Source: a virus
Strand: one strand, 5' to 3'
Length of the DNA stretch: 64,000 nt
IMG/VR virus record: IMGVR_UViG_3300022696_000071
Coordinates: 105,748-169,747 of that record
The translations under genes were made by a program, and so were the position numbers. A model generated the notes under the pieces. The model was given only the letters and a program-made list of their open reading frames with translations, made no database searches and was not told where the DNA came from. This document shows positions 47,501 to 50,617 of the stretch, piece by piece (positions within the stretch are counted from its first letter, which is position 1; each line of letters begins with the position of its first letter).

Positions 47501-47902
47501 AAATAATGCTCTCCCTCTTGATAATTGTACCCCTTTATATTCAACTAATTCAGTCAGCATATCATCAGTTGTTTCACCATTATTAATTTGAGTAGCACCA
47601 TATATTCCAAGAATAATGTCTTGATTGGGGCGAGGTACAAGAGTAATATCTGTTTGAGATAATAAATTATTCCATATTCCTATTCTTTCTTTCACATCAT
47701 TTTTTGATTCTTCTGTAATTGGAAAGTATAATGCCATACAATCTTGTACATATACACCATCGTGAGTTGAAAATGTAAAATAATCTTCAACAGTGAAATC
47801 ATATCCAATTGTTTTAGATGGATCTTTTTTAATAGAGATAGAAGAAACAGGAATTAAATTATATTTTTCTTCCAATTCTTTTTTTGATATTTTATTCGTC
47901 AT
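44540..47902 (-). CDS. rpoC: RNA polymerase beta' C-terminal part. Begins with a 54-aa C-intein fragment and contains a second, full-length intein.
   Basis: Residues 1-54 end with the intein block F/G-like GYDFTVEDYFTFSTHDGVYVQD. Residue 55 onward, CMALYFPIT, aligns with E. coli QMAVHVPLT, which follows NADFDGD. Beta' motifs present: GARKGLLDTALSTGDSGYLTRQL; LRTFH (trigger loop); GINIANKLFHNPTK; C-terminal SILQIPSRTSWLLGAMFANL. RBS AAGGAAAAAATTATAATG. Confidence 0.85.
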   Translation of the reverse strand: MTNKISKKELEEKYNLIPVSSISIKKDPSKTIGYDFTVEDYFTFSTHDGVYVQDCMALYFPITEESKNDVKERIGIWNNLLSQTDITLVPRPNQDIILGIYGATQINNGETTDDMLTELVEYKGVQLSRGRALFNKCLPEDYPIIDDVIDKRKLLNLLNKIVLSYPPSKVIKTLDKIKNLGFSLSTIRGYTLGLDDIFKEELLKKNKELTGNIVDDMNIIENSEEVHELLDSLPFSQYIKSGARGSWKQAKQLVFTRGYVSDSKGNIRPDLIRSSMVEGLNQKEFFESCYGARKGLLDTALSTGDSGYLTRQLIYSCINYQIDHNKIDCCTKDYLEIYVRDKKMARVLLWRNYVDDNGNVIPIRTSNINDIIGKNIKLRSPIYCESEKICKTCYGNLHKILHSDEIGIMAVHSIGERLVQLVLRTFHESLSRDTCIIDVNNNHIRMDELYERININSEDIYTFSCSPDGKIVVSKVLNVFKDHITNKMVKITLDNKKIIKVTPDHEMMMRNGTYKKAKDLKKWDSLMPCYLLEYGTLSSRMEGRRRIQQNYKEPKANGYRRDLIFHLSSDHSDCEKINKTNNIHRHHIDNDIKNDYPTNIQIIDADEHIKMHGEDARIKASETRKQWHIDNPEKSKQISIKVRRTCIENILKLISDLKLEKTSTNFNMIREKYFKSAGLRYPTYKYAIKDHEDLMIGFIDDIVKKPRQQLHAESRMDRVLKHMEENNLPMTYGSFDKSNREIYGDKTHHREKMLELSPDYLNHLEPVGGERRIVSSDSKGKVTGKSRQQLQCESRMKKVLAKMEELDMPLTYTSFDKANEIVYPKALSRKTIEGLLKHSPDFLSHLVDDRVEDNRSKQQRIAETMMDKILQHMKDNNIRLCLSQFDKINKEMYGRKIHDREHLLKWSPDYLRNKLYNDYAPIPDPNHDIPCGYNHKVNNIEFIELDKEEEFYDLEVDNEYHNFPVSSGVFVHNSGVVNRVSDEDSDDGGSHNEDIISGINIANKLFHNPTKLKQIDGDENISKPIHLLKFMYSIFGEYKNIHMVHYEIIVSAMMWVDNDLWRLVSNRNDVDYEFVSILQIPSRTSWLLGAMFANLKAKLLEGLINNRSDNSSALTELFKY
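44984..46600 (-). mobile_element. intein 2 (539 aa) inserted in the beta' trigger-loop region; carries an HNH endonuclease motif and three tandem ~55-aa DNA-binding-module-like repeats
   Basis: Starts at Cys (RDT|CIIDVNN). Block B-like VTPDHEMM. HNH-like HRHHIDNDIKNDYPTNIQIIDADEHIKMHGE. Ends EYHNFPVSSGVFVHN|S. Three repeats: HAESRMDRVLKHMEENNLPMTYGSFDK / QCESRMKKVLAKMEELDMPLTYTSFDK / RIAETMMDKILQHMKDNNIRLCLSQFDK. Codon boundaries checked against the DNA. Confidence 0.7.
47741..47902 (-). mobile_element. C-terminal fragment of split intein 1 (54 aa), fused in frame to the beta' C-extein
   Basis: MTNKISKKELEEKYNLIPVSSISIKKDPSKTIGYDFTVEDYFTFSTHDGVYVQD followed by C+1. The terminal residue is Asp rather than Asn. 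Confidence 0.6.
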
Positions 47903-47919
47903 TATAATTTTTTCCTTTT

Positions 47920-49032
47920 TTAAGCTGTTAATTTTTCTTTTTCTTCTACCAGTTTAAAATTATATTCATTTAACTTTCGTTTTATATAATTTAAATTCTT
48001 ATCTGAAACATCATGTAATGGATTTAATTTCCAACAATTTGTTTCATAATTTATTAATGATAAAGAACATATATATTTTTCATTTGTAATTATAACAAAT
48101 GCATTATAACCATTATCTATTCCAGATTTTATCTCATATCTAATATTTCTATTCTTTTCAAAATGTAATAATTCAAAATGTTTTACTTCGATTAACCATT
48201 TTGAATTATTATTTTTAGAATCTGTTATCATGATATCTGGAAACCAATAATGATTAATTCCATTTTCATCATAATAAGATAATCTTATTTTCGGTTGTGG
48301 AGTTATAATATGTGAACCATAATTTTTATATAGATAATTAAGAATAAATGTTTCTGATCCTTGTACATTTACTATTTTGCCATCTGGTGTCTCATATTCA
48401 TCACTATTTGATTCCGTTATCTTAGTACGAATATCTAAATCTTGACTTACATTTTCAACACCATACTTTTTATAAACACCATCTTTTTGAAGTTGTTTAC
48501 CAGCTTCAGATTGCCACGGGTAATCTGTTCCCCAATTTTTTCTTGAAGTTTCAATCTTCTTTTGTTTAATATCTTCAAATTGAGAAATATTATCAACTCC
48601 ATACTTCTTTTTTATCGTCTTTTTTGCAGTATCATGATAAGCTGATTTTAAAGATCCAAAATTCTTCTTAGCAGTTTTTTGCCGTTTAGCATTAACTTCT
48701 TTTAAACTCTGATAACATTTTTTATTACCACATGATATATTGAATCCTTCCGTAGCACTCTTAAATCCACATGGTTTACCACATTTACACATTGGAATAT
48801 CATTTTCAGTATGAATATCATTCATTATACAATAAAGACGATAAGAGAAAGGTGCTCTTGGAACTTTTTTAGACAATTTAAAAAATCGATCTAAATGTTT
48901 AGTTACTTCAGTTACTTCATTAAGAATAACTTTTGTTCGACTTAAACTTCTTATCATATTAGTTAAATCATTATTAAATTTAGTTTCTAACTGATTTTCA
49001 AAATAATCTTTCAGTTCATTAAGAGTTCTCAT
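47920..49032 (-). CDS. free-standing putative homing-type nuclease (PD-(D/E)xK / Vsr-like core) lying between the two halves of split intein 1
   Basis: 370 aa with its own RBS (CAACAAAAGGAAAATTATAATG). Repeated KKYGV(D/E)N(I/V)SQ modules. C-terminal HYWFPDIMITD...KWLIEVKHFELL is compatible with a PD...E-x-K nuclease motif. Cys cluster CKCGKPCGF...CGNKKC. Confidence 0.5.
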   Translation of the reverse strand: MRTLNELKDYFENQLETKFNNDLTNMIRSLSRTKVILNEVTEVTKHLDRFFKLSKKVPRAPFSYRLYCIMNDIHTENDIPMCKCGKPCGFKSATEGFNISCGNKKCYQSLKEVNAKRQKTAKKNFGSLKSAYHDTAKKTIKKKYGVDNISQFEDIKQKKIETSRKNWGTDYPWQSEAGKQLQKDGVYKKYGVENVSQDLDIRTKITESNSDEYETPDGKIVNVQGSETFILNYLYKNYGSHIITPQPKIRLSYYDENGINHYWFPDIMITDSKNNNSKWLIEVKHFELLHFEKNRNIRYEIKSGIDNGYNAFVIITNEKYICSLSLINYETNCWKLNPLHDVSDKNLNYIKRKLNEYNFKLVEEKEKLTA

Positions 49033-50617
49033 TATAATTTTCCTTTTGTTGAATCAAATATTTACCATATGGATTTTCTAATAATTCTTTTGGTGATATT
49101 TTCTTTATTGATTCATCAACTTCATCATAAACAATTAATGAATGATCAGACGATGAATGAAATGGTTTGAATTGATTGGAATCAGGATCACTTAATTCAT
49201 ACATTTCAATATTCTTATGAATAGAAAATTCAGTTATTTTCTTATATTCATTATTTCCAGTATCACAATCTATGGCTTTTATTTTAATATTATCAACTGG
49301 TTCATATTTTTCTACTGTGACTCCATCTGATCTGGTTTTGGTTTCTTTCAATTTCTTTGTATACTTCTTAAATTCTGATATGTGGAAAGTATCAAAATTC
49401 CCATCAGAAGTCAATACTTCAATATCTGCACTAACACTGTCGCCATCGAAATCTGCATTGTATGGAGGGCATATCATTGGATGTATTCTAATAGTATGCC
49501 CAAGATGAACTTTGGCTTTAAATCCAAGAATACCAAGACGATGAAGAGTAGGTTGTCTATTAAGTATACATAGTTTATCAACCATAAATTCTTGAACATA
49601 TCCATATAATTCATCACTATCATATTTCAAACAATCATCTATCCATTTAACTGCATCATTATATTTCTTTTTTGCTTTTCTATTTACAAGATATACTGTT
49701 AATTGAGGTTTAAGTATTTCAAGAATAACTTTATACGGAATACTACATTCATCCAAATTAAGATTTGGATCGGGTGATATAACAGCCCTTCCTGAAAAAT
49801 CAACTCTTTTTCCAAGAATATTTGATCGTATTAATCCCTTCTTTTTACTCATTTTAGATAATACATAATCATATAATTCAATTACGAGCAATTGAATATG
49901 TTTAAAATTAGTTTTATATATATCATCTGTTTCTGGAACTTTATATGGTAAAGAATTATATCTATTTATTTTAACCAATAAATACGAATAAAAAGAATTA
50001 ATTTCATCTATTATTCTTGTTCCATTTGCAGTTGTACTTCCACACGGTCTAAAATCCGGTGGAATTACAGTTATCTCATCTATAGTTATATTATCAAAAT
50101 TATCTCTGACATATTGAAATGATGTATCATATTTATCTATAAGATCTTTAACTATTTCAATTGCACCATTTAATCCAACTAATTTTTTACTGGTGTCATC
50201 TATAGATTCATCAAATAATACAACATCACCATCTTCATTAAAAATATATTCTTTACTATATTTCAATGTATTTAATATTATATCTTTATAGTTTGGTTTT
50301 ATATATGTAATTATATAAAGAAATATTGGATTAAATATTTTGAATGGTATTTTTATTACACCGAATCTTCTCCTTCGTTCGTCAGATGATGTGATATCTA
50401 CTCCACAAGATGGGCAGGTTTCTAAATCTAAATTTCTCCCTCTATAGCTTGATGATCGATTACAAGCACATTTGAAACTTCTTATTGGTCCAAATATTTG
50501 TTGGGAGAATAATCCGTCTTTTGAAAATTTTCCAGATTCAAAAATTTTGGGATTTAATATTCTGCTTATTTCTTCTTCTTCATTATTATCTCTTTGTTGT
50601 TTTAGCTCAAGTTTCAT
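49019..50617 (-). CDS. rpoC: RNA polymerase beta' N-terminal part (N-extein of 393 aa) plus N-intein fragment
   Basis: Zn-finger CACNRSS...CPSCGV. RxDFSGRAVISPDPNLNLDECSIP. NRQPTLHRLGILGFKAKV...ICPPYNADFDGD catalytic motif. RBS AAAGGAGGGAGATAATTTATG. Confidence 0.85.
   Translation of the reverse strand: MKLELKQQRDNNEEEEISRILNPKIFESGKFSKDGLFSQQIFGPIRSFKCACNRSSSYRGRNLDLETCPSCGVDITSSDERRRRFGVIKIPFKIFNPIFLYIITYIKPNYKDIILNTLKYSKEYIFNEDGDVVLFDESIDDTSKKLVGLNGAIEIVKDLIDKYDTSFQYVRDNFDNITIDEITVIPPDFRPCGSTTANGTRIIDEINSFYSYLLVKINRYNSLPYKVPETDDIYKTNFKHIQLLVIELYDYVLSKMSKKKGLIRSNILGKRVDFSGRAVISPDPNLNLDECSIPYKVILEILKPQLTVYLVNRKAKKKYNDAVKWIDDCLKYDSDELYGYVQEFMVDKLCILNRQPTLHRLGILGFKAKVHLGHTIRIHPMICPPYNADFDGDSVSADIEVLTSDGNFDTFHISEFKKYTKKLKETKTRSDGVTVEKYEPVDNIKIKAIDCDTGNNEYKKITEFSIHKNIEMYELSDPDSNQFKPFHSSSDHSLIVYDEVDESIKKISPKELLENPYGKYLIQQKENYNENS
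49022..49438 (-). mobile_element. N-terminal fragment of split intein 1 (139 aa), fused in frame after NADFDGD of beta'
   Basis: SVSADIEVLTSDGNFDTFHISEF (Hint block A with Ser1) ... FHSSSDHSLIVYDEVD (block B-like). The ORF stops at 49019-49021. Confidence 0.6.

Follow-up and report, generated by a model that had tools for sequence, protein, structure and literature searches.

A phage RNA polymerase beta' gene apparently broken at its catalytic motif by a split intein and a free-standing nuclease gene

In the fractured genes described by Dassa et al. in 2009 (gp41-1, NrdJ-1, IMPDH-1, NrdA-2 and others; PMC2677866), open reading frames (ORFs) from marine and freshwater phages that encode the pieces of a host protein carry the two halves of a split intein, and a free-standing endonuclease ORF lies between them on the same strand. 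The host proteins in that set are enzymes of DNA metabolism and packaging only, and the nucleases are of the GIY-YIG or Vsr-like kind. An essential polymerase subunit is rebuilt by trans-splicing in the cyanobacterial Npu and Ssp DnaE inteins, which have the Hint fold and use Cys1, Asn and Cys+1, with halves that reside at distant loci and no nuclease between them. Inteins are also found at highly conserved sites near the active centre of RNA polymerases, but those of eukaryotic and viral RPB2, RPA2 and RPC2 (Goodwin et al. 2006, PMC1635734) are contiguous, unsplit elements within the second-largest subunit of eukaryotic-type enzymes, and the Mg-binding motif of beta'/Rpb1 harbours none of them. 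Here we analyse a 64,000-nt stretch of the phage record IMGVR_UViG_3300022696_000071 (the window), in which the gene for the beta' subunit of RNA polymerase is interrupted directly after its catalytic NADFDGD motif by what appear to be two intein halves with a nuclease gene between them. In the literature searched, the coverage of which is incomplete, we found no report of a beta' intein at NADFDGD. Our statements about splicing and function are drawn from the sequence and from predicted structure.

We consider it likely, with a probability of roughly 85%, that this beta' gene is a fractured gene in which a class-1-type intein after NADFDGD has been split by the gene of a free-standing homing endonuclease and in which the two beta' halves are rejoined by trans-splicing. 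All three ORFs (N-half, nuclease and C-half) lie on the minus strand, and the locus is laid out as follows, with junctions between extein and intein marked here and below by a slash.

49439..50617, minus strand: beta' N-extein, aa 1-393 (ORF; Pfam RNA_pol_Rpb1_2, 7e-29; NCBIfam rpoC, 5e-51)
49459..49439, minus strand: catalytic NADFDGD, aa 387-393, at the end of the N-extein (translation)
49019..49438, minus strand: predicted N-intein (IntN), 139 aa plus stop, from Ser1 through block B SSSDHSL to KYLIQQKENYNENS (absent from intein-free homologues; Hint-fold model)
49029..49047, minus strand: translation-initiation cassette of the nuclease gene, AAAAGGAAAATTATAATGA, inside the last N-intein codons (sequence)
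47920..49032, minus strand: free-standing nuclease gene, 370 aa (DUF7487 plus PD-(D/E)xK)
47899..47917, minus strand: near-identical cassette, AAGGAAAAAATTATAATGA, ahead of the C-half (sequence)
44540..47902, minus strand: C-half ORF, 1120 aa, comprising the C-intein and the rest of beta' (Pfam Rpb1 domains)
47741..47902, minus strand: predicted C-intein (IntC), 54 aa, MTNKISKKELEEKYNLIPV...GYDFTVEDYFTFSTHDGVYVQD, last residue Asp (block F/G conservation; PT-HINT E=0.007, weak)
47740..47738, minus strand: Cys codon of the +1 residue (translation)
46619..47740, minus strand: beta' C-extein segment a, aa 55-428 of the 1120-aa ORF, starting CMALYFPIT (Pfam Rpb1_3, Rpb1_4 and Rpb1_5, the last at 2e-22)
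44984..46618, minus strand: second, contiguous intein, 545 aa, aa 429-973 of the 1120-aa ORF (Pfam Intein_splicing, 2e-17; homologue alignment)
44540..44983, minus strand: beta' C-extein segment b, aa 974-1120 plus stop (alignment to intein-free homologues)
41264..44263, minus strand: beta subunit gene, 999 aa, immediately downstream in the same strand block (Pfam Rpb2_6, 2e-46, Rpb2_3 and Rpb2_7)

Both ORF analysis and Pfam agree with the reading given in the initial annotation, in which the N-half ORF (49019..50617, 532 aa) encodes the beta' N-terminus through NADFDGD and continues in frame into 139 aa, SVSADIEVLTSDG...NENS, before its stop, while the C-half ORF opens with 54 aa followed by CMALYFPIT and the downstream Rpb1 domains. 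The fractured-gene pattern that it had proposed likewise holds, with a same-strand free-standing endonuclease ORF standing between host ORFs that carry the split-intein halves. The layout thus fits the definition of a fractured gene, and the locus differs from the 2009 set (PMC2677866) in host protein, nuclease family, junction details and intein termini. The host is RNA polymerase beta', the nuclease combines DUF7487 with a PD-(D/E)xK domain, the IntN is 139 aa long as against 88-105 aa, and the intein starts with Ser and ends with Asp rather than with Cys and Asn. Where the published loci have a 27-51-nt leader with a ribosome-binding-site hairpin, this one has neither, and the nuclease start overlaps the upstream ORF, with the nuclease ATG 11 nt upstream of the N-half stop (a 14-nt ORF overlap). 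At most published loci the 3' end of the nuclease gene overlaps the downstream half, whereas here 17 nt separate the nuclease stop from the C-half ATG. The nuclease gene does have a ribosome-binding site of its own, as had been claimed for it; this site is of the AAAGGA type, and one also precedes the C-half. Ribosome-binding-site hairpins of the fractured-gene kind were absent (the sequence folds no better than shuffled sequence, z +1.15 and -0.6), and sigma-70-like promoters and terminators showed no enrichment.

Homologues without the intein provide the first line of evidence. Searches with the N-half returned three kinds of protein: proteins of ~520-540 aa that are built like the window ORF and are about 40-56% identical to it, contiguous beta' proteins of ~890-920 aa with nothing inserted after NADFDGD, and proteins of ~445 aa that are broken at another, downstream point. 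The intein-free homologues, mostly with NADFDGD-(A/Q)MA(I/V)Y (NADFDGD-(A/Q/...)MA.Y over all 85 empty alleles), run straight on after the motif and have neither the 139-aa nor the 54-aa segment. Removing both inteins in silico (139 plus 54 aa, and aa 429-973 of the C-half ORF) gives a beta' of 914 aa that can be aligned over its entire length with P0013 (56% identity) and P0016 (54%), both intein-free, without a gap at either junction. Judged from these alignments, it is by insertion of the 139 and 54 aa that the window's gene differs from intact alleles at NADFDGD.

The initial annotation had taken the two segments for halves of a Hint domain, a claim that off-the-shelf hidden Markov models (HMMs) do not reproduce and that a family profile and structure prediction both support. 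Pfam returned nothing for the 139-aa N-intein and only the sub-threshold PT-HINT match for the 54-aa C-intein, the NCBIfam intein models recognised neither split half at their thresholds and matched only the second intein, and a single-sequence search of the PDB with the intein halves was empty. A naive HMM scan would therefore have pointed, falsely, to a lack of Hint similarity, the outcome that the initial annotation had named as counting against its reading. A profile built from 20 N-inteins, however, matches exactly two PDB sequences, both of them inteins and both aligned over block B, namely Pab PolII (2lcj, E=0.0025, the best) and Aes123 PolB1 (9hth, E=0.013). We modelled the joined halves (IntN+IntC+CMALYF, with a 23-row alignment) using AlphaFold2, which gave a predicted local distance difference test score of 91.4 and a predicted template-modelling (TM) score of 0.86. 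When this model was compared with the PDB using Foldseek, all top 50 matches were inteins or related Hint-fold domains, with TM scores of up to 0.77; the best was 7oec (9e-8), followed among others by the fused Aes123 PolB1 split intein 9hth (1.5e-7, TM 0.65/0.75). The top matches include the natural split inteins AceL NrdHF, Npu DnaE (4kl5, 9e-4) and NrdJ-1. The model thus supports the view that the 139-aa and 54-aa segments jointly form one Hint domain. The cysteine-less Aes123 PolB1 intein (PMC11923092) resembles the window's intein in being phage-encoded, naturally split and equipped with Ser1, but it interrupts a DNA polymerase, has a canonical C-terminal Asn (N159A in the crystal) and shares 16-18% identity with the window's intein.

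The residues on which splicing would depend are conserved in relatives, which are not phylogenetically independent of one another. Intein position 1, Ser in the window, is Ser in 17 family members, Cys in 4 and Ala in 1. In block B (S96-S-D-H99), which aligns to TvDH of the Pab PolII intein, the His is invariant and the Ser at least 90% conserved across 20 sequences, and the block-F Asp (F:4; D174 in GYDFTV) is invariant. The +1 residue, Cys in the window, is C, S or T in 11/11 readable intein alleles, whether split or contiguous, as against 5/85 intein-free ones (Fisher p = 5e-11, uncorrected for phylogeny), and it is also C, S or T in 20/20 further representatives; at the same position 80 of the 85 empty alleles have Ala or Gln. 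Three intein-free beta' proteins (P0051, P0064 and P0067) carry Cys directly after NADFDGD, and such alleles could be footprints of precise intein loss or could be pre-adapted for invasion.

The C-terminus of the intein is non-canonical. That the C-intein ends in Asp had been pointed out before, and this is both real and invariant across the family rather than a one-off, since Asp is the last intein residue in 31/31 junctions examined (11 plus 20 further representatives). The penultimate residue is Q, M, Y or F and never His (the window has Gln-Asp), and the intein thus lacks the His-Asn C-terminus of block G. According to PMC4031507, which cites Amitai 2004, inteins ending in Asp, Gln or Glu follow the same pathway through cyclisation of the terminal residue, and Asp termini are a documented minority variant. 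The non-Asn inteins described there (Pab and Mma PolII with Gln, CIV RNR with Gln, and Asp-ending ones) indicate that terminal cyclisation is not strictly Asn-dependent; they are isolated and contiguous, whereas here Asp is family-wide, split forms included, and the penultimate His has been lost. It is unusual for a whole family to have an invariant Asp and no helper histidines, and cyclisation of this Asp is a presumed step.

In the mechanism that we propose, a free-standing nuclease gene would have entered the Hint domain where an endonuclease is usually located, leaving the intein in two genes. The N-half, nuclease and C-half would be translated separately, probably from one transcript, as we infer from the 14-nt overlap and the 17-nt gap between the ORFs. 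IntN and IntC would then associate into one Hint domain, Ser1 would carry out an N-O acyl shift, Cys+1 would attack the resulting ester (transesterification), the C-terminal Asp193 would cyclise in place of the canonical Asn and free the intein, and an S-N shift would create the native peptide bond in ...NADFDGD-CMALYFPIT.... The predicted ligated junction peptide is ...NADFDGDCMALYFPITEESK..., with its junction at ...NADFDGD-CMALYFPITEESK. The second intein (Ser1...HN/Ser+1, HNH domain) would be removed in cis, yielding the 914-aa beta'. The nuclease, for its part, would cut nuclease-free or intein-free beta' alleles of co-infecting relatives, and repair would copy the whole cassette. Trans-splicing, Asp cyclisation and the activity and target of the nuclease are all predictions of this scheme.

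That an active beta' would require trans-splicing was already part of the initial annotation, and we retain it as a prediction; the second splicing event had been overlooked, and mature beta' would appear from the sequence to need two such events, one in trans and one in cis. The second intein starts with Ser1 (SLSRDTCIIDV), contains an HNH domain and ends ...GVFVHN/SGV, and it matches NCBIfam intein_Nterm (1e-10) and intein_Cterm (9e-4) as well as PHROG HNH families. Its HNH motif lies near aa 584, and it holds three tandem repeats of ~65 aa (…QQLHAESRMDRVLKHMEENNLPMTYGSFDK…SPDYLNHL plus two similar copies), which are presumably DNA-binding modules.

The 370-aa nuclease is modular. Its N-terminal half matches DUF7487 (Pfam 1e-18) and PHROGs "homing endonuclease" families, with a Cys cluster and helical repeats of the form KYGV(D/E)NxSQ, and is followed by a C-terminal PD-(D/E)xK domain. 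The modules reported earlier are present (KKKYGVDNISQ, YKKYGVENVSQ and FPD-x16-EVK, with PD at aa 265). The C-terminal domain has both the fold and the (E)...PD...(D/E)xK residues of its class, the core residues being E229, P265-D266 and E282-V-K284, which are kept in the PD-type subset of homologues. The suggested check for a Vsr/PD-(D/E)xK nuclease thus came out positive for the PD-(D/E)xK fold and negative for likeness to Vsr, the domain being closest to TnsA and Hjc. Assignment to the EDxHD/Vsr-like family was rejected, as the protein has neither the E-D-x-H-D signature nor a closest fold match to Vsr/I-Bth0305I. The EDxHD enzyme I-Bth0305I (PMC3239194) nonetheless shares the plan of a modular DNA-binding N-terminus joined to a small C-terminal domain of restriction-endonuclease fold, and EDxHD enzymes occur in fractured genes. 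In an alignment of 30 homologues, the Cys cluster and KYGVDNxSQ units are joined to alternative C-terminal nuclease domains. Alignment A1 (P0121-P0170) likewise has DUF7487 with PD-(D/E)xK (WFPD...ExK), HNH (IHHIDYNK..C...N) or restriction-endonuclease/Vsr-like domains, including members in the same intein split site. These sequences suggest nuclease-domain swapping on a constant targeting module.

Independent assemblies show a split at this site as well; the nuclease that separates the halves varies among them and is sometimes missing. This variety agrees with the stages in the gene-breaking model of Dassa et al.

L001: DUF7487/PD-(D/E)xK gene like that of the window
L002/L003: Endonuclease_7-family gene
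L004: DUF7487 remnant, truncated
L005: small 85-aa ORF only
L006: 647-aa DUF7487 protein
L007, L008: DUF7487 fused to an HNH domain

A nuclease-free locus such as L005 has its counterpart in gp41-7 of the Dassa set (PMC2677866). The intein also occurs contiguous and in frame (P0046, P0188 and LAGLIDADG-containing forms). With the N-intein profile, 123 clusters were found among 1.84 billion representatives, and the family occupies the DxDGD motif of phage RNA polymerases that differ greatly from one another, often as a contiguous intein. Giant single-chain phage RNA polymerases carry a contiguous relative (L010, L012, L013 and L014, at ~aa 1390-1800 of ORFs of 1955-2530 aa), their junctions being SGDYDGN/S, NADYDGD/S, NLDHDGD/C and NADYDGD/T, respectively; the position at which the window's intein is split is occupied in them by a LAGLIDADG-like insert (…GDGW…LLAGLLDTDG…).

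Several points weigh against the proposal that the halves are rejoined by trans-splicing. The case for splicing is built on sequence and predicted structure; the curated intein HMMs recognise neither half at their thresholds; and the window is a 64-kb part of a contig that measures at least 201 kb, so that a second, intact RNA polymerase is possible elsewhere. The C-terminus reads ...VQD and F:13 is aromatic, and therefore step 3 may be slow or different. An alternative is that the halves no longer splice and serve as a non-covalent docking module that holds together a permanently two-piece beta', much like fragmented phage enzymes whose pieces assemble by way of interaction domains that mobile elements have left in them. 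Replacement of the canonical His-Asn by Gln-Asp would fit such a role, as would the multi-piece beta' of relatives, in which an intein-free plain break lies ~54 aa downstream, and the Aeh1 NrdA split (PMC3045599) offers a precedent. Yet Ser/Cys1, the block-B His, the block-F Asp, the terminal Asp and the C/S/T at +1 are kept over 40-55% sequence divergence, and docking would not need the +1 nucleophile that every intein allele, and hardly any empty one, possesses. The Mg-binding loop of RNA polymerase is buried in the active centre, and a Hint domain of ~190 aa beside it should clash with that centre. We regard docking without splicing as improbable.

It is very improbable, in our estimation, that this beta' gene is non-functional and in decay, or that an error of assembly or a frameshift has created the arrangement, with a second or a host polymerase carrying out transcription. 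Only part of the genome is visible, and some jumbo phages encode two RNA polymerase sets, as is also seen for the AR9-type matches. However, every ORF is intact, the 1.1-kb insert is a complete conserved gene rather than a frameshift, the exteins keep 54-56% identity to intact homologues along their whole length, the beta gene lies directly downstream, and the arrangement is seen in many independent samples. The recurrence of the split layout in relatives excludes an assembly or frameshift artefact, an alternative that the initial annotation had itself raised and that fails against the same layout in independent metagenome assemblies at 40-55% protein identity. Least probable of all is a group I (or II) intron that contains the nuclease ORF, with RNA splicing restoring the beta' mRNA and the "intein" being mere read-through. 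Phage RNA polymerase genes often do carry endonuclease-bearing group I introns (AR9-like, Staphylococcus jumbo and Jug phages), but no Rfam family matched at its gathering score in the window and no intron model matched at E<=1 in 44000-51000. Moreover, the 139 and 54 aa on either side show conservation at the protein level, take a Hint fold in the model and are contiguous in frame in relatives, and the halves in L001 and L016 appear to lie >5 kb apart with unrelated genes between them. We consider the intron explanation to be already largely refuted.

Within the reading as a trans-splicing fractured gene, a further and unlikely, though not negligible, idea is that the RNA-polymerase DxDGD-site inteins form a mechanistically distinct lineage that has a different resolution chemistry and was broken at two points, possibly existing in three pieces in L016 and L017. 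Every DxDGD-site member examined ends in Asp and is without the two histidines that ordinarily power the final cleavage, and splice-site resolution may thus use different chemistry. Resolution might be linked to the binding of Mg2+ by the neighbouring Asp triad, or else to assembly with the beta subunit, in which case phage transcription would be conditional on regulated trans-splicing. There do seem to be two distinct points at which free-standing nucleases have broken the lineage. At the second of these, in L015:3382-8346, the beta' N-terminus is followed by a 34-aa IntN only (NADFDGD/SFFGNIRIRIGSKKKKQKIWMGDISKLENVEI, then stop), next by a DUF7487 gene of 462 aa, the C-terminus of which is Vsr/DUF559-like (IEFHGDYWH), and then by a 781-aa protein comprising a long IntC and the beta' C-terminus; ~20-40 of the 123 family clusters begin at the L015-type (~34 aa) intein position.

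In L016:432-764 (and also in L017), a free-standing 110-aa ORF, P0202, has its own Met, encodes intein positions ~26-131 alone and stops at the canonical split point. Unrelated genes, one of them for a dUTPase, fill the next 5.2 kb, and after them, at L016:6011-6764, comes an IntC (...GVFVQD/TMAVVMPQT) fused to the beta' C-terminus. The sequence suggests that L016/L017, from two samples, is a candidate natural three-piece split intein, the N piece of which is not on the contig. To our knowledge, three-piece split inteins have otherwise been engineered only. In L001:9587-14821, on a contig of 180 kb, a gene for a DegT-type aminotransferase and small ORFs come after the N-half and the DUF7487 gene, and no C-intein was found in the 5.2 kb downstream or the 8 kb upstream; it appears that the halves are dislocated or that the contig ends between them. 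Dislocated halves of the kind known from DnaE appear in only some relatives (L001, L016) of this phage family.

If our reading holds, natural protein trans-splicing would reach a multisubunit RNA polymerase, in its catalytic subunit and right at the Mg-binding loop, and the phage's own transcription would depend on post-translational ligation. The family also displays, at one insertion point, nearly every proposed stage of split-intein origin, namely empty alleles, a mini-intein in contiguous form, a LAGLIDADG-like domain carried in frame within the intein, fractured forms with a free-standing PD-(D/E)xK-, HNH- or EndoVII-type nuclease, a nuclease-free split, and halves >5 kb apart. The gene-breaking model of Dassa et al. 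is thereby directly testable by phylogenetics at this site. Cysteine-less inteins and short N-fragments are wanted in protein engineering (PMC11923092), and the family offers both, L004, L006 and L008 being catalytically cysteine-less (Ser1 with Ser+1 or Thr+1) and L015 having an N-fragment of ~34 aa. Finally, RNA polymerase genes of Zeta crAss-like phages have unexplained breaks at their DxDxD motif (PMC7886860), for which split inteins of this family may account.

A number of smaller observations concern the break points. Copies of the start cassette, AAAAGGAAAA(AA)TTATAATGA, bracket the nuclease gene (49029..49047 and 47899..47917); the window contains 4 matches to it at <=3 mismatches, of which the two flanking copies are the best, with 2 mismatches each. 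The pair fits the idea of an invading element that supplies start signals for the downstream half. The duplicated cassette has no counterpart in the relatives, and hence we do not take it as a family feature. In addition, a 32-nt direct repeat of 81% identity (49074..49105 versus 47865..47896) is translated as KKISPKELLEN where IntN ends and as NKISKKELEEK where IntC begins, and relatives show a comparable resemblance at the protein level (ITPKELLENPxGKYLIQ versus ITKQELENKGLxLIPV). This repeat could be a duplication at the split point or a chance match in AT-rich, Lys-rich sequence.

The plain break in beta' ~54 aa after NADFDGD (…QDI.LGI.S.TQ, then stop), at which there is no intein, is found in many relatives (for example L002:10309-10665; P0173-P0175; P0021, P0022 and P0058). 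It produces micro-ORFs of 97-118 aa that consist of IntC and ~50 extein residues; the window is continuous at this point. In L007:1493-1657, the C-intein ORF stops two codons past the junction (…GIFVQD/TN, then stop) and beta' continues in another frame, which could reflect a frameshift, a further small element or a sequencing error.

The source is a large phage, given that the window also encodes a large terminase subunit (TerL), a QueC-like protein and a helicase and that a protein identical to one of the window's is on record on a 201-kb contig. A megablast comparison of the locus with 50,697 phage records gave no match, and tblastn with the beta and TerL sequences found distant relatives only (<=27% identity over most of the query). 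Elsewhere in the window, an 864-aa protein encoded at 30686..33280 (minus strand) matches the shoulder domain of the major vault protein (PF11978, 2.5e-10). The GATase/QueC-like protein encoded at 20047..21507 (plus strand) suggests 7-deazaguanine DNA modification, and a similar gene sits near the polymerase genes in L004.

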